Origin: a virus
IMG/VR virus record: IMGVR_UViG_3300044782_000021
Span: 1-64,000 of that record
Strand: one strand, 5' to 3'
DNA length: 64,000 nt
Shown here: piece by piece, positions 3,226 to 57,501 of the stretch
Position numbering within the stretch: position 1 is the first letter of the stretch
Layout of the letters: every line of letters starts with the position of its first letter
The notes under the pieces: generated by a model
What the model was told of the DNA's origin: nothing
Seen by the model: the letters and a program-made list of their open reading frames with translations, nothing else
Databases searched by the model: none
Position numbers and translations under genes: made by a program

Positions 3226-3512
3226 GCCGCGACGAGCGGTGTCCGGTCACCGAGATGGACACGGCCGGCTGCGCGCACTGCCGACCGCCGGCCGAACGCG
3301 CCCGACTCGACGCCACCCAGAAGCTGATCGAGGCGCGTGGCGGCGGGGCCACCACCCGCGAAATCGCCGTCGACCCCGATTTTGAGCTCGGTCCCGCCGC
3401 CATCGCGCGGTACAGCGGTGGAAACTGCACCGGTCGCTGCGACTCGCCTATCGTGGTCGGCGACACCATCCGACTCACCGGCCGGGGCTGGGCGCATGAC
3501 ACCTGCACCTGA
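3222..3512 (+). CDS. hypothetical Cys-rich protein
   Basis: 96 aa from GTG 3222 (GTGA overlap with upstream stop), in frame of ORF 2868..3512; CPVTEMDTAGCAHC ... CTGRC ... HDTC. Confidence 0.5.
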   Translation: MSRDERCPVTEMDTAGCAHCRPPAERARLDATQKLIEARGGGATTREIAVDPDFELGPAAIARYSGGNCTGRCDSPIVVGDTIRLTGRGWAHDTCT

Positions 3513-4591: not shown

Positions 4592-5767
4592 ATGAACAGA
4601 ATCACTCGCCGGGCCATCGGCGGCGCGATCGCGCTGACCCTCGGCACTGCCTATGGCGCGACGCTCGGCGGCGGTCCCGCCGGAGCCGAGCCGCTACCGG
4701 ACTGCAAGACGGTGACGACCAACATCGTCGATCGGCCCGACAACGGGCACGGCACCGGCAACCCGGGCGCCGGCCTCACCGGCTACTGGGCAGATGTGAC
4801 CGGCACTCGAACCGTGAAGGTCTGCGTCGTCGTGCCGCAGGTCGCGGCGCTCGTCGCGGTGGACGGCGCCACCTACACGGCCACCGTGGTCGACTCGGGC
4901 ACGCTCGTCACGCGTGGCGGTGACATGCTGTCCCCGAACAAGGGTGTCAAGCTCCTGGCCGGGCTAAAGGGCACCTGGAACGGCGGCTTTGAGGCGACGT
5001 ACACCGCACCGGCTCCGACCTCCCCCGGCGTATGGCCGAACTGGACCCCGGAGAACATCCCGGCGACCGTGACCGGCGACCCGCGCACCTCTGACGTCGA
5101 CAGCAACCCGACCAACGGTAGTTGGCTGCAAGCGCTCTACACGGGCACCAAGCTGATCAGCGACAACCTCACCTCCGCGTACTCCTGGACGTACACCACA
5201 TGCAATGAGCAGTGGATCGACGCCGAGGACAACAAGGATGGTCAAGGCGAGGGTGCGGGTGACATCACGGGCCTGTCGGCGAACGCCGGCAGGTGCCTCG
5301 ATGTCGACGTGATCGTGCGCTGTGACGGCAAGGTCGACATCAAGATCACAAACCACCTGATTGCCGGCGTCAAGGTGCGGATCAATGGCGTGGACAAGAT
5401 CCTCACCTACGGCCTGAACGTGTTCCCCGGCGTCACGACCACCGACGGTTGGGTACGGGTCAAGTTCGGGGACAAGGTCATCAAAGAGTTGCGTTGCATC
5501 AAGCCTCCGAACTGCCCGACGCCGACCCCGACGCCCACCGCGACGGCGAGCCCGACCCCGACGGCTTCGACCTCCCCGACGGCGAGCGCATCACCGTCGA
5601 CCATCGTGATCGTGCCCATCAACAACACCGGCGGCAGCCGGCTGGCGCAGACCGGCTCGCCTATCAAAACCATCGTCGGCGGTGGCGTGCTGCTGCTGCT
5701 CGGCGGTGCCGTACTGCTCGTGCTCGGCCTGCGTCGAAACCGACGCGCCGCGCTCAGCGCGGAGTGA
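4592..5767 (+). CDS. secreted, sortase-anchored cell-wall surface protein (LAQTG sorting signal)
   Basis: 391 aa from ATG 4592 (GAGAGGA RBS); signal peptide MNRITRRAIGGAIALTLGTAYG; PTPTPTPTATASPTPTAS linker; C-terminal LAQTG + hydrophobic helix + RRNRR. Confidence 0.75.
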   Translation: MNRITRRAIGGAIALTLGTAYGATLGGGPAGAEPLPDCKTVTTNIVDRPDNGHGTGNPGAGLTGYWADVTGTRTVKVCVVVPQVAALVAVDGATYTATVVDSGTLVTRGGDMLSPNKGVKLLAGLKGTWNGGFEATYTAPAPTSPGVWPNWTPENIPATVTGDPRTSDVDSNPTNGSWLQALYTGTKLISDNLTSAYSWTYTTCNEQWIDAEDNKDGQGEGAGDITGLSANAGRCLDVDVIVRCDGKVDIKITNHLIAGVKVRINGVDKILTYGLNVFPGVTTTDGWVRVKFGDKVIKELRCIKPPNCPTPTPTPTATASPTPTASTSPTASASPSTIVIVPINNTGGSRLAQTGSPIKTIVGGGVLLLLGGAVLLVLGLRRNRRAALSAE

Positions 5768-5811: not shown

Positions 5812-5883
5812 TCCCCCGTAGCTCAACGGCAGAGCAGCCGACGTACGCGGTCGAGGTCGCGGGTTCAACTCCCGCCGGGGGAC
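5812..5883 (+). tRNA. tRNA, probably Arg (ACG), with irregular anticodon arm
   Basis: Acceptor TCCCCCG/CGGGGGA 7 bp; T8 A9; D arm GCTC-AACGGCA-GAGC; T arm GCGGG-TTCAACT-CCCGC. The anticodon stem is only 4 bp (CGAC/GTCG) and shifted by 1-2 nt. Loop is GTACGCG (U33 then ACG, pyrimidine at 37). No encoded CCA. Confidence 0.7.
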
Positions 5884-5931
5884 CTATCATTTCCACCAAC
5901 ACCGCAATCACAACAACCCCCGGGGTCCCCC

Positions 5932-9931: not shown

Positions 9932-10177
9932 ATGAATGATCTTCCCGGGGGGACCGCGCTGCGGACCCCGACGTTCTCCCCCGCCCGCCTGCGTGCAGCC
10001 CGCGTCCGGAAGGGCCTGACGCAGGAGCAGGCCGCCGGACAGATCGGCCGCGTGCTGTCCACCTACGTCCGGTACGAGCTGGGCTACCTGGAGCCCTCCA
10101 TCGACGCGCTCGGCGCGCTGTGCGTGGCCCTGGACGTGCCGGTAGGCGCACTGTTCGACGACCCGCGCAACGAGTGA
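9932..10177 (+). CDS. XRE-family (Cro/CI-type) helix-turn-helix transcriptional regulator
   Basis: 81 aa; LRAARVRKGLTQEQAAGQIGRVLSTYVRYELGYLEPSIDALGALCVALDV is a typical HTH_XRE pattern. Confidence 0.8.
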   Translation: MNDLPGGTALRTPTFSPARLRAARVRKGLTQEQAAGQIGRVLSTYVRYELGYLEPSIDALGALCVALDVPVGALFDDPRNE

Positions 10178-11346: not shown

Positions 11347-12800
11347 GCGAGGAACGGGGCAAGGTGGATTGGTCCGACATCGACCAGATGGCGGCGCCGT
11401 CGTCGAATGGGTTGCCGCCCACGAATGGTGTGCCGGTCGACGAGCTGTTCGAAAACGCGCAGAAGGTCGAGAAGGCCGAAAAGATGCTGTCGCTGTTGGG
11501 TAAGGACCCGGCGGCGTGGCTGGAGCAGATGCGCACCGAGGGCGATCCGGTGAAGCAGATGATCCGGGTGTTTGAGCGGTATCAGGTGCATTCGGCGGAC
11601 AAGGAGGCCCGGAAGCTCGCGGATGGTGGTGCGGCCGGCGGCCGGCGGCTGCGGGTGACGGCGGCGTCAGAGTTCGCGATGAAGGCTGTGCGGTGGGTGT
11701 GGGCGGGCCGGATGCCGATGGGGGAGATCACGCTCATTCCTGGCCGCGAGGGTGTGGGGAAGTCGACGTTTCTGGCGTGGATGGCGGCGGCGGTGACGAC
11801 GGGGGTGTTGCCGGGCATGTGGGCGGGGGTGCCGCGCAGTGTGTTGTACGCGGCTACGGAGGATTCGTGGGAGCACACGATCCGGCCACGGATGGAGGCG
11901 GCGGGCGCCGATCTCGGCCGGGTGTTCCGACTCGACGCGGAACAGGACGGCGGGTATGGGAAGTTGTCGCTGCCGGTGGATACGCGGCTCATTCCGGAGA
12001 TCGCCGGGGAGACGGGTGCGGCGGTGCTGATGTGTGATCCGATCATTTCGTTGGTGTCTGATCAGATCAACACGTTCAAGGCGCAGGAGTTGCGTGGAGC
12101 ACTGGAGCCGTTGAAACGGGCGGCTGAGGAGGCCGGTATCTGCGTGGCGGCTCTGGTCCATTTCAACAAGGCCAAGGACACCGATGTCCTGTCGATGATT
12201 TCGGGGTCGCGGGCGTGGTCTGAGGTGGCCCGCGCGGTCATTGCCATTGCCCGGGACAAGGATGCTGAGGATTACACGTGCGTGGTGTCGCAGGTGAAAA
12301 ACAACCTGGGCCGGTCTGATTTGCCGCACCTGACGTACACCATCGACAACAAAGAGTTGAGAGATGCCGAAAACAATCCGGTGCATATTGGCGCGCTGCG
12401 GTGGATGGGGGATTCGGATCGTGGTGTTGAAGATCTTCTCGCGCAGGCACACGTCAAAGAGAATGTAGGCGATTCGACCAAGGCGGTTATTAATTTTGTG
12501 GTGGCGCGGTACGCGGAGACGGGGCGGCCGGTGTCGACGAAGGATGTCGTTGACCAGTTCGCACCGGACCAGTCGGCCGAGAATTCGCGGAAGATCCTGA
12601 GTCGGTGTGTGACTCGGGGTGGTCTGCGCAAGGTTGTGCATGGCCACTACGCACCGCCGGACGAGCAGCGGCTGTGTCCGGGGTGTAGCCGGCCGGCGGC
12701 TGCCGGGGAGAACTACTGCGCTCCGTGTCGACAGAGCCTCGACCACGCAGATCGTCAACAAAGGGTCACAACGGATGATGATGGTCTTTTTCCCCGGTAG
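11343..12800 (+). CDS. AAA/RecA-like ATPase, RepA/DnaB-like replicative helicase
   Basis: 485 aa; overlaps the primase stop; Walker A GREGVGKST; Walker B-like VLMCDPI; C-terminal CPGC...CAPC. Confidence 0.8.
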   Translation: MSEERGKVDWSDIDQMAAPSSNGLPPTNGVPVDELFENAQKVEKAEKMLSLLGKDPAAWLEQMRTEGDPVKQMIRVFERYQVHSADKEARKLADGGAAGGRRLRVTAASEFAMKAVRWVWAGRMPMGEITLIPGREGVGKSTFLAWMAAAVTTGVLPGMWAGVPRSVLYAATEDSWEHTIRPRMEAAGADLGRVFRLDAEQDGGYGKLSLPVDTRLIPEIAGETGAAVLMCDPIISLVSDQINTFKAQELRGALEPLKRAAEEAGICVAALVHFNKAKDTDVLSMISGSRAWSEVARAVIAIARDKDAEDYTCVVSQVKNNLGRSDLPHLTYTIDNKELRDAENNPVHIGALRWMGDSDRGVEDLLAQAHVKENVGDSTKAVINFVVARYAETGRPVSTKDVVDQFAPDQSAENSRKILSRCVTRGGLRKVVHGHYAPPDEQRLCPGCSRPAAAGENYCAPCRQSLDHADRQQRVTTDDDGLFPR

Positions 12801-12807
12801 GTGGGGT

Positions 12808-13096
12808 GTGACGGGGGTGGGTGCCTGTCACGTCTGGAGATGTGACAGTGCCACCCCTTTGTGGATCTTGGGTCACGTTTCTGACCTGGGGTGGCGCACT
12901 CCGGAGCGTGACGCCTCTCGCGCGCGATACCCCTGTCACACTGTCACATCTGTCATTATCCCTGCTTAAAGTGTGTGTGACATATATTTTGAGGTATACG
13001 AGAGGGTGTCATTATTGAGGATGTGTCACACTACAGAGAGTAACAATGAGTGGAATGTGACAGCGTGACAGTGTGACGGGTGTGATTCCTGTGATG
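12808..13096. repeat. GTGAC(A/G) iteron cluster flanking an AT-rich core; candidate replication origin or regulator landing pad
   Basis: About 16 GTGAC cores. TGTCAC/TGTCAT direct copies at 12934, 12942, 12951; AT-rich 12955-13020; GTGACA/GTGACG/GTGATT/GTGATG direct copies at 13057, 13065, 13073, 13082, 13091; further copies at 12808, 12826, 12842, 12872, 12908, 12977, 13007, 13024. Confidence 0.6.
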
Positions 13097-13206
13097 ACCC
13101 GAGCGCGCATGGCGAGCGCGCGTATCACGTACGCTCGCCTAAGGCAATGAAAACCCCGGCACGGCTGGCACCGTCCGGGGTCCGGCTGACTGGAGAAAGA
13201 GTCAAC

Positions 13207-13401
13207 ATGGCGAAGCGTAATGCCCAGGACTGGCCAGAGCGTGAAATTGATCGACTTCAGCTACGGATCGAAACTCAGCAGATCTGGCGGGTTGGTCTTC
13301 TTGCTCGTGTCCAACAGGCCGACATCGCGATCACCGAGGCGCAATCCCACATTGGATATCTGAAGGATATTATTGTCTCAAGGGCTGAAAAACTGGAATA
13401 A
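13207..13401 (+). CDS. hypothetical coiled-coil protein
   Basis: 64 aa from ATG 13207 (GGAGAAAGA RBS) in frame of ORF 13147..13401; visibly AT-richer than surroundings. Confidence 0.45.
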   Translation: MAKRNAQDWPEREIDRLQLRIETQQIWRVGLLARVQQADIAITEAQSHIGYLKDIIVSRAEKLE

Positions 13402-13512
13402 TCTATAATATGGGCTGATAGCTCCCGGAATACCGCTAAACGGTACAAACGGACTATCAGCTCATAACCGTTCGGCCACCACAGCCCGAAAGGGCTCCGA
13501 GCAGGGAAAAGG

Positions 13513-14421
13513 ATGTGGATCATGAGCGTTGGCAAGATAGTTAGCATGCCTAACCAATTCGGCGACCAGATAGTTAGCGCCACTAACAAACCTGCGGTCG
13601 CCGAGCGCTGCCCGTGCGGCGATTCAGAGCATTCCCGCTGGTTGGTGGCCGGCACCTGGACCTGCGAGCCGTACCCGTGCCAGTGCGCCGGCCGCCCTTC
13701 GTGGGCGGAAAGCTGCTGGTACCGGCACAAGATCACACACAAGATGATCAGCCGTTGCTACTGCTCGACCCGCGAGCGTCACAAGGAGTTGCCACACGAT
13801 TGCTGCGCGTGGGAGGTTCGTAATCCTCGCCACCTCGACGAGGCGAGCCCGCTCAGCCCGCCCAGTTCGCCGCTGAGCGTTGGGGGGTCACCGAGGTACC
13901 CGAACGCCGTCGTGGGCGGCCAGGAGCAACTCACGGCTGGCGGAATGGACCTTATCGACGAGCTGGCACCCCGTCCGGTCGAAGACCTGTGGACGCTCGA
14001 CCCGTCCGACCCGGAGGACGTCGAAGCGACCGCGCTGTACGTCGAGCCCGGCGAATTCGTCGCCGACCACCCTGTGAGCGCTCCGACGAACACCTCGACG
14101 AGCGGCCGGAAGCGCCGTGCCAGCGCCACGCAATCCGTCGAGACTGTGACATTGCCGGCGCTCGTCCGCCGCTATAGTCACGCTGAGTGTCACTGTGGTT
14201 GCGCAACGCCATGGGATGGGCAAAAAGTGTCAAGTGGGTACCACTGCCCCAATTGTCACAGTAATTGGACCAACCTCGGGACCGCCGAACACCACCGGCG
14301 GCGGATGTCCGGCGTCTGCCGGCTGCCGGGCGATGTGGTCGACGTCGACACGGGCCGCAGGTTGCTCGCGGCGCGCTCCGTGGGCGGCTTCGAGGTCTGG
14401 GGGCCGGTGGCGTACGCTTGA
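13513..14421 (+). CDS. Cys-rich zinc-finger protein (C-terminal FDxHR-like CxxCH...HH..C motif)
   Basis: 302 aa; many CxC/CxxC; C-terminal YHCPNCHSNWTNLGTAEHHRRRMSGVCRLP. Confidence 0.6.
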   Translation: MWIMSVGKIVSMPNQFGDQIVSATNKPAVAERCPCGDSEHSRWLVAGTWTCEPYPCQCAGRPSWAESCWYRHKITHKMISRCYCSTRERHKELPHDCCAWEVRNPRHLDEASPLSPPSSPLSVGGSPRYPNAVVGGQEQLTAGGMDLIDELAPRPVEDLWTLDPSDPEDVEATALYVEPGEFVADHPVSAPTNTSTSGRKRRASATQSVETVTLPALVRRYSHAECHCGCATPWDGQKVSSGYHCPNCHSNWTNLGTAEHHRRRMSGVCRLPGDVVDVDTGRRLLAARSVGGFEVWGPVAYA

Positions 14422-31113: not shown

Positions 31114-31271
31114 CCACCAGAACGCGCCTCCGCATCCTCGACGCCGCCATGCTGGTCGTGCTGGCCAGCCTCATCGCCATGGCCGCCGGCTGGTTCTGGG
31201 CCGTCATACCGCTGTTCGCCGCGTTCCTCGTCGGTATGGGCGTCGTTACCGGGTGGGGCGGACGGCGGTGA
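31110..31271 (+). CDS. small membrane protein (2 TM)
   Basis: 53 aa from GTG 31110 (GTGA overlap) in frame of ORF 30855..31271. Confidence 0.45.
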   Translation: MTTRTRLRILDAAMLVVLASLIAMAAGWFWAVIPLFAAFLVGMGVVTGWGGRR

Positions 31272-32962
31272 CCACGGCGGTGCTCCAGGCCGCCCACGAA
31301 GACGAAGAGCCGGCGCCGCAGTCCATCGCCGACCCGTACGATGAGCGCGCCAACTCCGAGACCTTCGACCTCACCGGCTGGCTGGCCGGCATCAATCCGG
31401 TCCTCCTGGAGACCACCGAAGGTCGCAAAGCCCTCACCATCGATGACCCGCTGCTGTTCGCATGCCTGTACCTGCGCAAACACCTCGTGTCCGAGGAGAC
31501 CGGCGGGATCACCCTCGCCGATTGTCACCTGGATTGGTTCCGGCTGGCCCGGGAGTGGACGATCCCGGACACGGGGCTCCGTGGGTGGCGACACAGCTTC
31601 GCCAGTCCAAGATCATCAGGGAAAAGCACTGCTTGGTACACGTTGATACCGATTTGGGCGGCTGCGCACGGCCACATCAAATTCATCGCCACCTTCGCCA
31701 ATGGCTCATCGCAGTCGGAGATGCACCTTCAGACGTTCCGCACTGAGGCGGCGCACAATCCGTTGCTGCGTGAGGATTTCCTGGATCTGTGCACCGCGAT
31801 TCGCAAGCCCACCGGGCGGACCGTGGCGGATAACGAGGGGATGTACCAATCGAAGGGCGGCTTTGTCTGGGTCGCGCGCGGCATTGATGTGGCCAGCCTG
31901 GGCATGAAAGTGGGTGACAGGCGGCCGGACGCGATCGTCCTCGATGACATCGAGAAAGATGAATCCCGCTACTCGCCGGGCGAGGTGGAGAAGCGTCGAA
32001 AGACGCTGATCGATGCCATCATGCCGTTGAACGAGCGGGCGAAGCTGGTGCTCGTTGGCACGGTGACGCGGCCCGGGTCGATAAACCACCAGCTAGTCAA
32101 AGTCGCTGTCGGCGAAGTAGATCCGGACAGCGAGGAGGGCCGGGACCTGGTCTGGATCAAGGATGAGCGCATCGTCCCGCATTACTACCCCCCGATTGTG
32201 GAGCGCCCGGACGGTAGCCGGCGGTCGATCTGGCCGGAGAAGTGGAGCCTCGAATACCTCGAAAGCATCGAACACACCAAGAATTACCAGAAAAACTTCA
32301 AAAACAACCCAAGGGCTGACTCTGGCGACTATTGGTCTGAAGATGACATTAGGTATTCGGAACTACCGAACGTCACGAAGACGTACCTCTTTGTTGATCC
32401 ACCGCTGACGGTGAAGACGAAGAGCGACCCGTGCGGCCTGGCGGTGCTCGGGTACGCGCCGGGGACCGGCGTGCGGGCGCCGCAGATGCGGGGGACTGGC
32501 GGCGGCACGCGGGAGGCGCTGTCTCTCGCCGAGTCGGAGAGCACGTTGCCGGCGCGGCTGTCGCGGGTGATCGTGAAAGACGCGTATGAGGTCAAGCTGA
32601 CCGGCACGCCGCTGAAGATGAAGATCCTTCAGATTCTCCAGGATTATCCGGAGATCTGCGCTGTTGTGCTCGAAAACAACGCAGGTGGGGATCTATGGGT
32701 TGAAATCATGACAGGCCTGCCGGTCAAATTTGTGACGTTTCCCTCAACTGAGCCGAAAGAGGTTCGGTTGGCGCGGGCGCTCGACTTCTACCAGAAAAGG
32801 CGCGTTGTGCACCGAAAGCGGATGCCGAAGCTGGAAGACCAGCAAACCGCCTATCCGCGTGTAGAGCATGACGATGTGGTCGATGCGGCATCAACCGGGA
32901 CAGTGCGGCTGCTGGCGCCGAAGCCGACCCCTAAGAAAAACCGGACTGTTACGCCGAGGTAG
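31253..32962 (+). CDS. terL: terminase large subunit
   Basis: 569 aa (alternative GTG 31268 with GTGA overlap); Walker A SPRSSGKST; Walker B AIVLDDIE; C-terminal nuclease-like region with acidic residues (HDDVVDA). Confidence 0.9.
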   Translation: MGRTAVTTAVLQAAHEDEEPAPQSIADPYDERANSETFDLTGWLAGINPVLLETTEGRKALTIDDPLLFACLYLRKHLVSEETGGITLADCHLDWFRLAREWTIPDTGLRGWRHSFASPRSSGKSTAWYTLIPIWAAAHGHIKFIATFANGSSQSEMHLQTFRTEAAHNPLLREDFLDLCTAIRKPTGRTVADNEGMYQSKGGFVWVARGIDVASLGMKVGDRRPDAIVLDDIEKDESRYSPGEVEKRRKTLIDAIMPLNERAKLVLVGTVTRPGSINHQLVKVAVGEVDPDSEEGRDLVWIKDERIVPHYYPPIVERPDGSRRSIWPEKWSLEYLESIEHTKNYQKNFKNNPRADSGDYWSEDDIRYSELPNVTKTYLFVDPPLTVKTKSDPCGLAVLGYAPGTGVRAPQMRGTGGGTREALSLAESESTLPARLSRVIVKDAYEVKLTGTPLKMKILQILQDYPEICAVVLENNAGGDLWVEIMTGLPVKFVTFPSTEPKEVRLARALDFYQKRRVVHRKRMPKLEDQQTAYPRVEHDDVVDAASTGTVRLLAPKPTPKKNRTVTPR

Positions 32963-33124: not shown

Positions 33125-35116
33125 GTGACAATGGTTTCGCAAAGCACCCCCGGGCAACTCGCCAAGATCATCAAGGGCGGCCTGCCGGACCTCGTCATGT
33201 CCCGAAGCGCCGACGAGCGATCCATCGACCATATTCAGCGCGGCCTAACACAGCTCAAGAAGCAGCGCGAAGTCTGCGACCGCGCTGACGCGATGTACGA
33301 CGGCGATGTTGGCCTCACGTTCGCCTCTTTCAAGGTGCGCAGACTCCTCGCCAAACAAGGTGGCCTCGAAGAAATAGATGACTTCAATTACGCCCGGATT
33401 CCGGTCGACGTCATCGCCAACCGCCTCCAGATCGCAGCCGTCAAAGTCGCCCCGGCCGAAGAGAACGCCGACGACCAGACGACCAAGGAAAACGCGGCGG
33501 TCACGGCGGCCGAGAAGGCGATAGCCCGCCTCCGCAAGCGCAATGAACTCGACGCCGAAGAGAAGCGGTTGCACACCGACGTCTCCAAGCACGGCGAAGC
33601 GTTCGTCCTTGTCTGGCCCGTCACCGACGACGGCGGCAAAGTCATCGACGTCGATATGCGTGTCAACTCCGCGCACAACGTCGCGATGGTGTACGACGAA
33701 GAGGACTCTCTTCGCCCCGACTTCGTGATCAAATCGTGGACCGTCGATGTCAAGCGGAAGACCGTCGTCCGGGCCAACCTCTACTACTTCGGCGAGAAGG
33801 ATGGCCGCGTCGAGCGGTGGATGACCGAGCCCGGCGGCAACCCGGACGACGAGAAGGCCTGGCTCCGCGTCGCGAAGATCGCCGACGTCAGCGACGTCGA
33901 ATCCGAGGACATGGTCGACGTCGCCGAAGACGAGTTCACCGAGGAGGACGACGACGGTGAATCTCTCCTGGACGTCAACGACATTCCGAATCCGTGGGGC
34001 CAGGTGTGGTTTCACTTCCGCAACGGGCGTCCGTGCGGCCGGCCTGAACACGCGTCGGCGTACGGCCCGCAGACCCTCATTAATAAGTTGATCTATGCGC
34101 ATGCCGGCACGATCGACTACCAGTCGTTTCCGCAGCGGTATTTGCTGCAAGATCCGGCGATCGACGATCCGATGGTCAACTCGGAGGACCCGGACCACCC
34201 GGACGACGAAGAGGACGATCCGGAGACCGAGACCGGCAGCGCCGGACTCAAGGCGGACCCGGCGACCGTCTGGAAGCTTTGGGGCCGGTCGGTGGGCGAG
34301 TTCGCCGCTGCGGACCCGCAGATGTTTCTTGCACCGCTCGACCGCTACATCAAGAGCATGGCGGAGCTGACCGACATCCCTCAGTACGCGTTCAGTAAGG
34401 CGTCCGGCGACCTGCCGTCAGGTTCGGCGGTGCGCCAGTTGAACGGCGCCATGAACGCCAAGGTCAAAGACCGCCAGGACCGGTACGACCCGCAGTGGCA
34501 GGACGGATACGAGAAGGCCCTGACCATGCTCGGCATCTCGGGCGTGACCGTCGATGTCCGGTGGGAGCCGCCGGAGCTGATCAACGACCTTGACGGGTGG
34601 CAGATGCTGAAGGCCAAGCAGGATGCCGGAGTGCCGGGCTCGGTCACCCTGGAGGAGGCCGGCTACGCGCCGGAGCTGGTCGAAGAGTGGGGCCAGGACC
34701 TCGCCAACGCCAGCATCATCCAGCGGGTCGAGATGCTGGAGAAGATCGCGACCGCCGCGCAGGCGCTCGGCGCGGCCGTGGTCACCGGCTCCATTGCGGA
34801 TACGACGAGTCAGGCGCTGTTCGAGCGGCTGCTTCGCCTCACCGTGGAAGGCACCGAGGACATCGAGGACGCGGACAGCGTCGACCCGTTGCCGGTCGCC
34901 GAGTTCCGCGACCCACCCCCGGTCAATCCGGCCATGGCGCAAGCTGAGGCGGCCGGGGCGAATCCGCTCACGCAGGCGCAGATCGAGGCCACCAAGGCGT
35001 CTGCGGAGACCTCGCGGGCGTCGGCGAGGATGCTGAATGCCGGCGGCGGTTCCCCGGCGGACGGGCGGCAGCCGCCGCGCAAGACGGCCGGGCGCCGGCC
35101 GGCTGGGCGGCCGTGA
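33125..35116 (+). CDS. portal protein
   Basis: 663 aa (alternative ATG 33131 with GGAG RBS); position after TerL, size, acidic C-terminal region and SPP1-type portal-like N-terminal pattern. Confidence 0.85.
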   Translation: MTMVSQSTPGQLAKIIKGGLPDLVMSRSADERSIDHIQRGLTQLKKQREVCDRADAMYDGDVGLTFASFKVRRLLAKQGGLEEIDDFNYARIPVDVIANRLQIAAVKVAPAEENADDQTTKENAAVTAAEKAIARLRKRNELDAEEKRLHTDVSKHGEAFVLVWPVTDDGGKVIDVDMRVNSAHNVAMVYDEEDSLRPDFVIKSWTVDVKRKTVVRANLYYFGEKDGRVERWMTEPGGNPDDEKAWLRVAKIADVSDVESEDMVDVAEDEFTEEDDDGESLLDVNDIPNPWGQVWFHFRNGRPCGRPEHASAYGPQTLINKLIYAHAGTIDYQSFPQRYLLQDPAIDDPMVNSEDPDHPDDEEDDPETETGSAGLKADPATVWKLWGRSVGEFAAADPQMFLAPLDRYIKSMAELTDIPQYAFSKASGDLPSGSAVRQLNGAMNAKVKDRQDRYDPQWQDGYEKALTMLGISGVTVDVRWEPPELINDLDGWQMLKAKQDAGVPGSVTLEEAGYAPELVEEWGQDLANASIIQRVEMLEKIATAAQALGAAVVTGSIADTTSQALFERLLRLTVEGTEDIEDADSVDPLPVAEFRDPPPVNPAMAQAEAAGANPLTQAQIEATKASAETSRASARMLNAGGGSPADGRQPPRKTAGRRPAGRP

Positions 35117-48197: not shown

Positions 48198-48290
48198 CTC
48201 CATCCCGCGACGGGCAATAGTCGGCTTCCCATTACCTCGCTCGTGACGAGCAATCGAATTCCCCGATTGTGTGCGAGCGAAAGGAAGCCA

Positions 48291-49370
48291 ATGACGCACA
48301 CCAACGCCGCACTTCTTTGGGATGTGCAGCCCGACCGCGATACCGATCCCCTCGCCCTTCCCCGCCTGCTCGGCACCACGCGCAGCGGTCGCCCCGTCTG
48401 GTCCGTCGCCGGTGGCGCGATCATCAACGTGGACGAGTGGATTCCGATCGAGTACTCCTCGGAAGTCGTTCAGCGCGTCCTAACGGAGTCGGTGATCGAA
48501 TCCAGCGCTAAGCGCGTGATCATGAACTCCAAAACGAAGTCGATCCCGCGCTCGGCCGGCATCACCGTCTCGGCCGGTACCACGTACGTCGATGACGCGT
48601 CGACCAACGACGAGATCACCCTGACGGCGCGGCGCTTCATCGCCCGCCTCAAGATCGATGAGGATGACCTGGCCGACGCCAACACCCGTCTCGACGTGCT
48701 CGGGACCAAGGCGCTCGACTGGGCGATCTCCTATGCCGACGTGTTCGACAACGCGTGCTTGGGCGTCACCGCGACCGAAACCGGCACCTCCGTGGCGCCG
48801 TTCACCTCCGCGTACAAGCGGATGCGGACCACGAACGCCGACACCAGCTACACCGCCGACGCCAACTATCTGACGTGGGACGACGACAACCCGGCGATCT
48901 CTACCACGCCAGACGGCACGTCGCTGTACGAGAAGCTATCGGCCACCTTCAAGAAGGTGGAAACCGGCAAGTACTGGTCCCAGTCCGACGCGCTGGTTAT
49001 CGCGCACCCGGGCTGGCGCGACGCGCTCCGGCTGTGCATGGACGCCCAGGGCCGACCCATCTTCCAGCCGGGTACCGGCAACCGGCTGCCGGGCAACGGC
49101 ACCCCGGACCAGCTCTTCAACACCGACATCCGTTGGTCGCGTGGCTGCCGGACCAGCCCAACCAACACCGGCAGTCCGACCGGCAACGACCTGCTCTACT
49201 ACCTGAACCGTCGGTACCTCGCCCGAGGCGACCGGTCCGGGCCGGAGACGCTGACCGACGACGCGCGGGCGCAGGACGACACGGACGACTACGCGATGAA
49301 GTTCAGGACGCGTCGCGCGTTCCAGCTTACGCACGAGGCCGCGTGTGCCGTACTGGAGCGGGTCGACTAA
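48291..49370 (+). CDS. major capsid protein (HK97 fold)
   Basis: 359 aa from ATG 48291 (AAAGGAAG RBS) in frame of ORF 48243..49370; position, size and Phage_capsid-like sequence pattern. Confidence 0.85.
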   Translation: MTHTNAALLWDVQPDRDTDPLALPRLLGTTRSGRPVWSVAGGAIINVDEWIPIEYSSEVVQRVLTESVIESSAKRVIMNSKTKSIPRSAGITVSAGTTYVDDASTNDEITLTARRFIARLKIDEDDLADANTRLDVLGTKALDWAISYADVFDNACLGVTATETGTSVAPFTSAYKRMRTTNADTSYTADANYLTWDDDNPAISTTPDGTSLYEKLSATFKKVETGKYWSQSDALVIAHPGWRDALRLCMDAQGRPIFQPGTGNRLPGNGTPDQLFNTDIRWSRGCRTSPTNTGSPTGNDLLYYLNRRYLARGDRSGPETLTDDARAQDDTDDYAMKFRTRRAFQLTHEAACAVLERVD

Positions 49371-55017: not shown

Positions 55018-57501
55018 ATGGCTGAAGGCTTTAAAATCGCGGATGGTTACCTCGACATCGAGGCGGACGACTCCGGCGCGCAGCGGACGCTACGCGGCTT
55101 CCTGCGCCGCACCGATGAGATCCTCGACGCCAATCAGAAGTCGTTTCTCCGTGGCGGGCTCATGGCCGGTACCGACTACGGCAAGAGCGTCACCGAATCC
55201 GCCGATCGGGAGCTGACCAACGGCTTCAGTCGGGACATCAACGGCCGGCTCCATAACGCCCGGGGCCGGTTCGCCAGTGAGGGCGAGATCGCCGGTGAGA
55301 CGTTCGCGCGCGGTCTCACCCGGGGCCTGGGTAAGCTCAGCGGCGGCAGTAGCGGCGGCGGCAGCGATAGCAGCGGTAGGGGCGGCATCTTCTCGTCGCT
55401 GTTCTCCGGCATCGGCGGGGCGATCAGCTCCGGCCTTAGCGGACTGTCGACAGCCGGCGGCATGATCGGCAACATCGGCACCGCGCTCGGCGCGGCTGGC
55501 GGCATCGTCTCCTCGATCGCCATGTTCGTCGGCATCACCGCGCTCATTCCGGTCGTCATCGGGCTTGTCGGTGCGCTGATCCAGCTCACCGGCCTCCTCG
55601 GGCTCCTGCCCGGTCTCATCGGGTTCGCCGCCGCCGCGCTGATCCCGCTCATAATCGCGTTCAAGGGCGTCGGTGCGGCGCTGGGCGCCTTCATGTCCGG
55701 CGACATGCAGAAGTTCAACGAGGAGCTGAAGAAGCTCGGGCCAGGCACTCGTGCCGTGGTCAAGGAGATGACCGGTCTCGTCCCGATTTTGCGAGAGATC
55801 AAGAAGCTGGTCACCGAAGCGTTCTGGACCCCGTTCAAGGGTGTCTTCAAAGATCTCGGTAAGACGTTTCTGCCGATGGCCAAGGCCGGGCTTGTCAGCG
55901 TGGCCGGTGCGCTCGGGCGGTTCGGGTCGGAGTTTCTGCGGCTGTTCGCCAGCAATGACATCGTTGAGGCGATCGGTGATGTCTTCGAGTCCACCGGCCG
56001 GATCATTGACAAGGTCGGACCGAAGTTTATCAATCTCTTCGGCACCCTGATCGGCATCATGGAGCACAGCTTGCCGTTTGTTGAACGGTTCTTCAGCAAG
56101 ATCGGCTCCGGCATGGACAAGTTCAGCGCCTTCTTGAGTGACGCCATGAAGACTGGCGACTTCGAGCGCTGGCTTGAGACCGCGTTCGACGTCATGCAAG
56201 ATCTGTGGGATTTGAGCAAGGCGCTCGGCAATTTGTTCATGGCAATCTTTGGCGATGCCGGTGACGAGGGTCAAGGCTTCATCAAGACATTGACCGACAT
56301 CACCAACAAGATGGCTGACTTCTTCCGCAGCCCGGACGGCAGGGAGTTCCTTCAGAACATCCTCGATATGATCAAGTTTGTGGGGATCGGGCTCGCGTTC
56401 CTTGCCGTCGCATTCGCCAATGTCGCCCGGTGGTGGAACGCCTGGACGACCTTCTTCGAAAGCACCCTGCCGGATGGCCTGGCCAAAGCGAAAGACGCCG
56501 TTACGGGCCTATGGGGCACGGTTGTTGGATTCTTCAAGGGTGTCGGACAGGCGATCGGTGACTTCTTCAGCAAGGCGTGGGACACCGTGCTATCCGTGGG
56601 CGAGTCGATCGCCGGCTGGTTCATGGCCCTACCAGGTCGGGTGCTCGGATTCCTCACCGCGCTGCCCGGCCAGCTCTATACCCTGTTCTGGGACGGGTTC
56701 AACCGCCTCGGCTTCGCGGTCGGCTATGGCATCGGCTTGATCATCGTCGCCGTCCAGGCGTTGCCCGGTCTCGTCCGGGGCGCCCTGTCATCGATGCCGG
56801 GCCTCGTCTGGGGCATTCTCACCACCACCTGGAGTGTGGCGTTCAGCATCGTGTCAGACGCCGTCACCACGGTGCTTGGCTTCCTGTGGAGCCTGCCAAC
56901 GCGGGCGTGGGACGCGCTGAACAGCCTCTACGGCATGGTGACCGGATTCTTCAGCCGCACCAAGGACGTGGCGGTCAACCAAACCCGGTCGATGGTCGAC
57001 ACCGTAGTGGGCTTCGCCTTCAGTCTGCCCGGCCGGGTCATGGGCGCGCTATCTGGTGCCCGCCACTGGCTCTACAACACCGGTCGCGACATGCTCACGG
57101 GCCTTTGGGATGGCTTCTCGTCGATGATCGGCTGGCTCGTCGACCGGGTCAAGGGTGCCATGGCAAGCGTGGTCAACGGCGCCAAGAGCGCGGTTGGCGC
57201 ACGCTCACCATCCAAGGTCTTCGCCGACCAGGTTGGCCGCTGGATTCCGCCCGGAATCCAGCAGGGCATCGAGGCTCAGATGCCCAAGCTGAACCGCTAC
57301 ATGGCCACACTGGGCACTCAGATGACACACAACGTGCAGGTGTCCGCGCCGGCCGTCTCCGTGGGCGGTAGCAATGTCGTGGTCATGCTCGACGGCGAGG
57401 AGATCGGCGCGAAGATCATGAAGCCGAAGCGGGTGTCCGCCGCCAACGACGAGGGCAACCGCACACGCGGATTCCTGAACACCGCCCGAGCTACGCCGTG
57501 A
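55018..57501 (+). CDS. tape measure protein
   Basis: 827 aa; Gly-rich segment, several hydrophobic helices, long helical repeats; follows the G/G-T pair. Confidence 0.9.
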   Translation: MAEGFKIADGYLDIEADDSGAQRTLRGFLRRTDEILDANQKSFLRGGLMAGTDYGKSVTESADRELTNGFSRDINGRLHNARGRFASEGEIAGETFARGLTRGLGKLSGGSSGGGSDSSGRGGIFSSLFSGIGGAISSGLSGLSTAGGMIGNIGTALGAAGGIVSSIAMFVGITALIPVVIGLVGALIQLTGLLGLLPGLIGFAAAALIPLIIAFKGVGAALGAFMSGDMQKFNEELKKLGPGTRAVVKEMTGLVPILREIKKLVTEAFWTPFKGVFKDLGKTFLPMAKAGLVSVAGALGRFGSEFLRLFASNDIVEAIGDVFESTGRIIDKVGPKFINLFGTLIGIMEHSLPFVERFFSKIGSGMDKFSAFLSDAMKTGDFERWLETAFDVMQDLWDLSKALGNLFMAIFGDAGDEGQGFIKTLTDITNKMADFFRSPDGREFLQNILDMIKFVGIGLAFLAVAFANVARWWNAWTTFFESTLPDGLAKAKDAVTGLWGTVVGFFKGVGQAIGDFFSKAWDTVLSVGESIAGWFMALPGRVLGFLTALPGQLYTLFWDGFNRLGFAVGYGIGLIIVAVQALPGLVRGALSSMPGLVWGILTTTWSVAFSIVSDAVTTVLGFLWSLPTRAWDALNSLYGMVTGFFSRTKDVAVNQTRSMVDTVVGFAFSLPGRVMGALSGARHWLYNTGRDMLTGLWDGFSSMIGWLVDRVKGAMASVVNGAKSAVGARSPSKVFADQVGRWIPPGIQQGIEAQMPKLNRYMATLGTQMTHNVQVSAPAVSVGGSNVVVMLDGEEIGAKIMKPKRVSAANDEGNRTRGFLNTARATP

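Follow-up and report, generated by a model that had tools for sequence, protein, structure and literature searches.

A predicted iteron-type replication origin downstream of the primase and helicase genes of an uncultivated actinobacterial phage

Introduction

The replication module of staphylococcal pathogenicity islands (SaPIs) has the order pri-rep-ori in which the origin is located immediately 3′ of rep, as outlined in a summary of the studies by Ubeda in 2007 and 2012 (PMC9371898). The portions of that summary drawn on here describe an origin of 6–12 short iterons with an AT-rich center and two or more iterons per side, those of one side pointing opposite to those of the other, as well as a Rep protein whose C-terminal winged helix reads the iterons and which loads itself as the helicase without a separate loader (PMC9371898). 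The SaPI Reps are AAA+ helicases of the SF3 or MCM-like types. The nearest characterized actinobacterial case is the Streptomyces plasmid pWTY27 in which the Prim-Pol protein RepB and the ~520-aa RepA protein are encoded beside a 300-bp non-coding iteron region, an arrangement described also for pFP1/pFP11 (PMC3583192). In this region, which also has AT-rich segments and an extended, discontinuous inverted repeat, five 8-bp direct repeats face five complementary repeats; RepA gives a footprint there, and the locus by itself supports replication, which proceeds in both directions (PMC3583192). The origin used by ORF904 of Sulfolobus pRN1, a protein with similar counterparts among phage replication proteins, is directly downstream of its own gene and consists of a ~100-nt stem-loop which, according to the authors, defines the origin without iterons (PMC4234260). 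In a 2008 review of actinomycete integrative elements, the role of the Prim-Pol gene was listed as unknown (PMC2440964).

The present analysis concerns a 64-kb stretch of DNA, termed the window, which is part of an uncultivated actinobacterial, siphovirus-like phage. A preliminary description had singled out an iteron-rich, non-coding block directly after a primase and helicase gene pair as a candidate origin of replication. The comparisons reported below indicate that this block very probably is the replication origin of the phage, a conclusion that is drawn from sequence. The layout is known from SaPIs and some Streptomyces plasmids, and the find is not unprecedented.

Results

The window has a G+C content of 65% and every convincing gene is on the + strand. 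It includes genes for terminase, an SPP1-type portal, and the major head and tape measure proteins (Table 1), and the phage is therefore considered siphovirus-like. The 3′ end of the Prim-Pol gene overlaps the start of the helicase gene (11346 vs. 11343). The gap between the helicase stop codon at 12800 and the ATG at 13207 of the next plausible gene measures 406 bp, which agrees with the ~400 bp estimated earlier. When 40 ORFs of the window were scanned against Pfam and PHROG, genes for ParA/ParB, an integrase or a DNA polymerase did not appear in the vicinity of the block, and Rfam and tRNA scans detected no RNA gene within it, the sole match being a tRNA-Arg at 5812–5884. A protein search located the helicase of the window on an 82.6-kb contig. 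Near and distant searches with the block DNA against 50,697 phage records produced no match, and helicase matches among the same records were only ~30% identical. Elsewhere in the window, an ORF at 23435–24439 in the early/middle region matches phrog_4285 ‘transposase’ (4.9e-62), and the sequence CCGGCC is dense at 22526–23275, with 19 copies in ~750 bp that are situated mostly where the crude gene list has no ORF.

Table 1. Coordinates of the replication block, its predicted parts and the genes referred to in the text.
Feature	Coordinates	Strand	Remarks
HTH_3 protein gene	9932–10177		upstream of Prim-Pol gene
Prim-Pol primase/polymerase gene, 346 aa	10306–11346	+	PF09250, 1.8e-32; phrog_5852 DNA polymerase/primase, 2.5e-31
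AAA_25 helicase gene, 485 aa	11343–12800	+	PF13481, 2.4e-21; stop TAG 12798–12800
Winged helix code, aa 377–437	12471–12653	+	AF2 H-H-H-strand-strand; proposed iteron reader
CxxC...CxxC zinc ribbon code, Cys445, 448, 459, 462	12672–12731	+	conserved in homologues
Left auxiliary sites, five GTGAC/GTCAC words	12806–12914		five words in matching part of L071 (3099–3169)
Palindromic pair CTGTCACGTCT/AGATGTGACAG	12825–12848		among left auxiliary sites
Left alternating CG tract CGCGCGCG, then ATACCCC	12917–12927		
Left iteron array, 3 x CTGTCA(C/T)	12933–12958	-	8–9-bp period
AT-rich core	12959–13054		GC 0.40; proposed unwinding element
Core internal site	12975–12983	+	conserved columns in alignment A1
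Core internal site	13006–13014	-	conserved columns in alignment A1
Core internal site	13023–13031	-	conserved columns in alignment A1
Conserved 11-mer TACAGAGAGTA	13032–13042	+	single copy; conserved columns in alignment A1
Right iteron array, 5 x GTGA(C/T)	13055–13096	+	8–9-bp period; inverted relative to left array
Right GC-rich boundary	13098–13139		CGAGCGCGC x2 (D10) and hairpin GGCGAGCGCGCGT/ACGTACGCTCGCC (I9)
GC hairpin CCCCGGCACGGCTGGCACCGTCCGGGG	13153–13181	+	ahead of coiled-coil ORF; kept in L076 (~4757–4785)
64-aa coiled-coil ORF, next plausible gene	13207–13401		ATG at 13207
Terminase large subunit gene	31253–32962		18 kb from block
SPP1-type portal gene	33125–35116		
Major head protein gene	48243–49370		
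Tape measure protein gene	55018–57501		

Sixteen (T)GTGAC(A)-like sites with the consensus ~(A/G)N(T/C)GTGACAG occur in the 406-bp gap. TGTCA starts at 12934, 12942 and 12951, and GTGA(C/T) starts at 13057, 13065, 13073, 13082 and 13091 with spacings of 8, 8, 9 and 9 bp, which reproduces exactly the three and five copies at 8–9-bp spacing reported in the preliminary description. The additional words noted leftward comprise five sites between 12808 and 12912 (GTGAC at 12808, 12842 and 12908; GTCAC at 12827 and 12872), and three further words are found in the core (GTGAC at 12977, TGTCAT at 13007 and GTCAC at 13025). The claim of an AT-rich core of ~100 bp between the arrays also held, as the GC content of 12957–13054 is 0.40 compared to 0.65 for the window, and 12951–13050 is the joint lowest-GC 100-bp stretch in the 64 kb (0.39). 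The two arrays form inverted repeats (I1 and I2) with arms of 19 and 17 nt that are 89–94% complementary, and as single strands they fold into an extended hairpin structure (-49.9 kcal/mol; z = -4.4). The second lowest-GC stretch in the window (0.39), 13311–13512, is upstream of a gene at 13513–14421 whose product has a weak match to an FDXHR zinc-binding domain; this stretch includes a promoter-like TTGTCT-18-AATAAT at 13373–13402 and the motif GTACAAACGGAC in common with relative L071 (~3478–3490).

Across the whole 64 kb, TGTGAC/GTCACA is present at chance level (30 copies vs. 31.1 ± 5.7 in shuffles). Eight of the 30 copies are held in one 300-bp span in which 0.14 are expected (Poisson 3e-12), and 300 sequences simulated with a first-order Markov model had at most 5 copies in any 300-bp span, with a mean maximum of 2.2. 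Clusters of the word are absent from the other intergenic gaps, and the gaps that precede the HTH/Prim-Pol operon lack even a single copy; the earlier assertion that the iteron equals the promoter operator word is not supported. Cumulative GC skew shows several turns but none at the block, and has its minimum at ~6–10 kb, 3–6 kb upstream of the block. As the phage is transcribed in one direction, GC skew is a weak marker here.

Helicases with 54–73% identity to that of the window were found by protein search. The gene order in these relatives is (HTH_3)-Prim-Pol-AAA_25, with ~250–660 bp of non-coding DNA after the helicase gene, and the primase and helicase are fused in two close relatives. 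Six independent close loci were compared as DNA (L071, L074, L075, L076, L077 and L078), with L072 and L073 counted with L071, all from P0002. An HTH_3 gene was called in the close loci except L076. The gap in each of the six loci includes 4–13 copies of GTGACA/TGTCAC, which are most of the copies of the locus. Most loci also keep the order of elements: a CG tract with AT(A)CCCC; a minus array of two or three TGTCACA units; an AT-rich core of ~100 bp with GTGACATAT, TGTCAT/TGTCAC and a conserved GTCACA..TACGGAGAGTA; a plus array of two to five TGTGACA units; and GGGG with a CG-rich tract. The left array is kept as two to three copies in L071, L075–L078 and L081, and a left tandem array was not clearly seen in L074. 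The arrangement CGCGCGCG-AT(A)CCCC(C)CTGTCAC is maintained in L071, L077 and L078, and comparison of the relatives reveals a mirrored right-hand counterpart of the left CG tract, GGGG..TCG(T)GCGCGCG. GC-rich tracts that correspond to the right boundary are present in L071 and L074–L077, and some of the six loci do not have a CG tract on each of the two sides.

The conserved columns in the DNA alignment A1 are the words and the 11-mer, whereas the spacers have diverged. Conservation of the words while the spacers drift is a phylogenetic footprint of protein-binding sites, and the persistence of word positions over 54–73% protein identity rules out a chance array. The 11-mer fits the pattern TACRGAGAGTR, which occurs once per locus in L071–L073, L075, L077 and L078 and always on the + strand. 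Flanked by the AT-rich core and the right array, it disrupts the otherwise two-fold symmetric layout, and might serve for priming, as a binding site for a host factor or as part of a promoter. A promoter and terminator scan of the block gave one weak minus-strand sigma-70-like match in the core and one minus-strand terminator-like hairpin at 13157–13173. The latter has a T-run on the minus strand and a terminator-like score, and no minus-strand gene is evident. The larger hairpin of which it is part (13153–13181) probably serves expression or termination of the downstream gene and is outside the origin proper.

In the further relative L081 both opposed arrays (GTCACA/GTGACA) form part of the helicase ORF, where they separate the codons for the winged helix from those for the zinc ribbon and encode VT/VSQ repeats. 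This placement fits a cis site that is tied to the helicase and not a promoter. The center between the arrays of L081 has a GC content of 0.55 and is not clearly AT-rich, and an easily melted center thus is not shared by the whole family. Beyond the helicase stop codon, L081 has another array with a different unit, TGGCACGG, in four copies; the arrays within and beyond the ORF occupy locus positions 1790–1925 and 2185–2240.

Seventy loci with helicases ≤50% identical to that of the window were collected; their sources were viral contigs and genomes that included actinobacterial and acidimicrobial ones. This distant set, which consists of phages, integrated elements and plasmids, collapsed to 41 lineages at 70% identity, and the location of the single most enriched rare 6-mer cluster was determined for each locus (~13 kb). 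The best cluster was ≤350 bp from the helicase stop codon in 28 of the 41 lineages compared to an expected 2.9 (binomial 6e-23). The preliminary description had named retention of the gene pair without downstream iterons as the observation that would tell against an origin; clusters instead are carried by the six close loci and by these 28 distant lineages. No top-scoring cluster was near the stop codon in 13 of the 41 lineages, and a homologue on a Streptomyces plasmid (CP108844.1) has no array within the 120 bp read beyond its stop codon. Thus, location of the array at the 3′ end of the gene is not a universal rule.

The word varies by lineage, with GTCAGA, GCCACA, GGTACA, GTGCCA, ACTGTC, ACGACT and ACGCAA among others. 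Close reading of L057, L023 and L044 disclosed 8–9-bp tandem units and opposed arrays, with an AT-richer center in L057 and L023. Many distant relatives, among them L044 (7085–7165), L041, L026 and L064, have in-frame 9-bp iterons in the 3′ tail of the helicase ORF that encode tripeptide repeats (VPV, TTV and SGD), and the reading frame stays open because of the 9-bp period. The small Corynebacterium glutamicum plasmid pCG2 (L079, NC_004534.1) has its own iterons after the gene for a homologous AAA family ATPase. The 466-bp gap at 2337–2803 of pCG2 has five to six direct and inverted TGTATGTAAGTGG-like units, and probably is the origin of that plasmid. An integrated element of Spongiactinospora rosea (L024) has six direct TGTCAC words at 8–14-bp spacing (630–700) that adjoin a tRNA 3′-end fragment at the element boundary. 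The word is that of the window in an unrelated position, and these copies probably are arm-type recombinase or Xis sites.

Homology among the helicase relatives ends at approximately residue 370, and the C-terminal 115 residues are variable. An AF2 model of the helicase made with a 40-sequence alignment (pLDDT 85.9) comprises a RecA-fold core (aa 110–358), a winged-helix unit (aa 377–437), a zinc ribbon and a terminal helix. The best structural matches of the core were RecA, RadA, KaiC and DnaB; the Walker A motif GREGVGKS is invariant across homologues, and homologues occur fused to Prim-Pol, Toprim or a DnaB N-terminal domain. A RecA-fold ATPase with a Walker A motif that is adjacent or fused to a primase places the protein in the SF4/DnaB-RepA-like (AAA_25) class. 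A PDB sequence search with the helicase returned marginal RecA matches only, and no PDB Rep was matched. The C-terminal domain modelled alone had a pLDDT of 86.7 and all of its Foldseek matches were winged-helix DNA binders (Fur/Zur, HrcA, IclR, MecI/BlaI, Rpa2-WH and LexA), with an rmsd of 1.9–3.8 Å over 62–72 columns in those alignments that were confined to the winged helix, and with modest E-values of 1e-3 to 1e-2. As modelled, the domain confidently is a winged helix, with a putative recognition helix at ~aa 412–424, AENSRKILSRCVT.

The same word is accompanied by the same putative recognition helix, and other words are accompanied by other helices. Loci with GTGACA share the C-terminal motif RKILSRCV..G.L(R/K), those with GTCAGA share NIDQTLKRMVK, and those with ACTGTC share RNL.RAA..L..GFPR.T.W. 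The co-variation of word and C-terminal domain, along with the siting of the arrays within or right at the 3′ end of the gene itself, suggests that the helicase is an iteron-binding initiator. The co-variation and the predicted fold likewise suggest that it is the C-terminal domain that binds the word. The HTH_3 protein (9932–10177) also may be considered as the reader, although the gaps that precede the HTH_3 and Prim-Pol genes are devoid of the word.

Discussion

A clustered and enriched word, an AT-rich element between the repeats, and conservation together with co-variation with a putative initiator domain are features of iteron origins that are combined in the block. The enrichment, the conserved layout and the word/domain co-variation all favor the reading as an origin of replication that was advanced in the preliminary description, which stands as a strong prediction from sequence-based tests. 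In its specific form, the interpretation is that 12806–13140 is a bidirectional (theta-type), two-fold symmetric iteron origin that is bound by the phage’s own helicase and primed by Prim-Pol, and we regard this as likely.

The block alternatively might be an operator or promoter hub at which a transcription factor, for example the HTH_3 protein, switches the genes beyond 13207, or terminates or insulates the replication operon. The block is in an intergenic gap that separates two gene sets, the HTH_3 gene is syntenic in most close relatives, and the AT-rich core has the weak sigma-70-like match. Set against these points, the word is missing upstream of the HTH/Prim-Pol operon and is not clustered in other gaps, and 16 sites in opposed arrays far exceed the usual need of an operator. 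Moreover, L081 and many distant relatives have the arrays inside the tail of the helicase ORF, a place that does not call for a promoter, the cluster accompanies the helicase gene in plasmids and integrated elements despite different downstream genes, and the word changes with the C-terminal domain of the helicase. An operator hub as the explanation of the block therefore is unlikely. Origins and promoters often overlap, and an operator role consequently could coexist with origin function; a promoter may overlap the origin.

Short tandem repeats also characterize sites of other kinds. Partition sites such as R1 parC and the omega heptad sites are short direct or inverted repeat arrays, and terminase small subunits also bind repeat arrays, so that a centromere-like or a packaging (pac/cos) site might be envisaged. 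No ParA/ParB-type gene was present near the block among the scanned window ORFs, the terminase large subunit gene is 18 kb away (Table 1), and the helicase-adjacent array is kept in pCG2 and in integrated elements without phage packaging genes, which together make either function highly improbable. Least credible of all is a recombination site with attP-like, arm-type sites or a degenerate repeat without function: attP regions are AT-richer than their surroundings and have many direct or inverted protein-binding words, and the L024 array is beside a tRNA fragment at an element end, but no integrase adjoins the block in the window and the arrays associate with the helicase instead of with element ends.

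If the block is the origin, the 485-aa RecA-fold helicase would act as its own initiator, with the winged helix at its C-terminus reading (T)GTGACA(G), perhaps with assistance from the zinc ribbon. Several helicase subunits would occupy both opposed arrays at the 8–9-bp period, and this occupancy would strain and melt the 100-bp AT-rich center. As the arrays are mutually complementary, a cruciform-like intermediate is conceivable and perhaps is involved in melting. The flanking alternating CG tracts may limit or clamp the melted region. One helicase ring would be loaded per side in an outward-facing orientation, and initial primers would be made on the unwound strands by the adjacent Prim-Pol. 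The scanned window ORFs did not include a gene for a phage DNA polymerase, and elongation therefore probably would be performed by the host replicase. The extra sites at 12806–12914 may be auxiliary or recruiting sites. The 8–9-bp period, which places successive sites on different faces of the helix, unlike in the classical plasmid iterons of 20–22 bp, is a point against this model.

The locus resembles the SaPI module in the order of primase, helicase-initiator and origin, in the location of the proposed origin directly 3′ of the helicase ORF, and in the opposed iterons with an AT-rich center. The predicted C-terminal winged helix (AF2 and Foldseek) also is shared with SaPI Rep. In contrast, the core of the window’s helicase is a RecA-fold AAA_25 domain and not an AAA+ domain of the SF3 or MCM types, homology with Rep1/Rep2/PriRep5 was not found, and the primase is a Prim-Pol. 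Additional differences from SaPIs are the 6–7-bp core in 8–9-bp units, the greater number of copies (16), the CG-tract boundaries and the zinc ribbon. In view of its RecA-fold AAA_25 core and the lack of a Rep sequence match, the helicase is regarded as an analog of SaPI Rep and not as a member of that family. As judged from the published description of pWTY27, the window resembles this plasmid in architecture, with a Prim-Pol, a large companion protein and opposed short repeats, but the iterons of pWTY27 (338–606) are upstream of repAB, whose genes begin at ~621, and its word is GTGGGAAC. The window also is similar to pRN1 in the combination of Prim-Pol, helicase and winged helix with a downstream origin, a proposed one in the window, and its arrays also can pair (-49.9 kcal/mol); in ORF904, by contrast, these functions reside on one polypeptide and the helicase is of the SF3 type.

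The lambda origin sits inside gene O, and its initiator-binding repeats adjoin an AT-rich unwinding element. Initiator repeats also are beside an AT-rich element in the origins of pPS10, RK2 and F. The initiators of lambda and of the iteron plasmids are non-helicases that recruit host DnaB, and the iterons of these systems are 18–22 bp and helix-phased. The repeats of L081, which are within the coding sequence of the putative initiator itself, are reminiscent of lambda O. Unlike in lambda and in pPS10, RK2 and F, the proposed initiator of the window is a helicase and the units are 8–9 bp.

The analysis provides a precise candidate origin of ~300 bp for an actinobacterial phage lineage without a close sequenced relative. 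A simple rule, that an array of a rare word marks the 3′ end of the AAA_25 gene, located the equivalent site in 28 of 41 distant lineages. A wider proposal, which we offer tentatively and stop a little short of favoring, is that this large AAA_25 family, which is mostly actinobacterial, comprises self-loading initiator-helicases that each use a winged helix, accompanied or not by a zinc ribbon, to read their own lineage-specific 6–7-bp word, repeated at an 8–9-bp period at the gene 3′ end or within it. If so, the origin-binding SF3/MCM helicases of viruses and SaPIs would have a bacterial counterpart in the SF4 class, neither an additional initiator nor a loader would be required, and origins would be readable from sequence in many actinophages, integrated elements and plasmids. 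The broader pattern, in which a large AAA_25 family has its own putative origin-reading domain and a cognate 3′-end array, is of moderate added value. If the helicase is confirmed as the reader, the pairs of helix and word (GTGACA, GTCAGA, ACTGTC, GGTACA, GCCACA and others) would constitute a natural table of winged-helix specificity, and could supply orthogonal minimal replicons for actinobacterial genetics.
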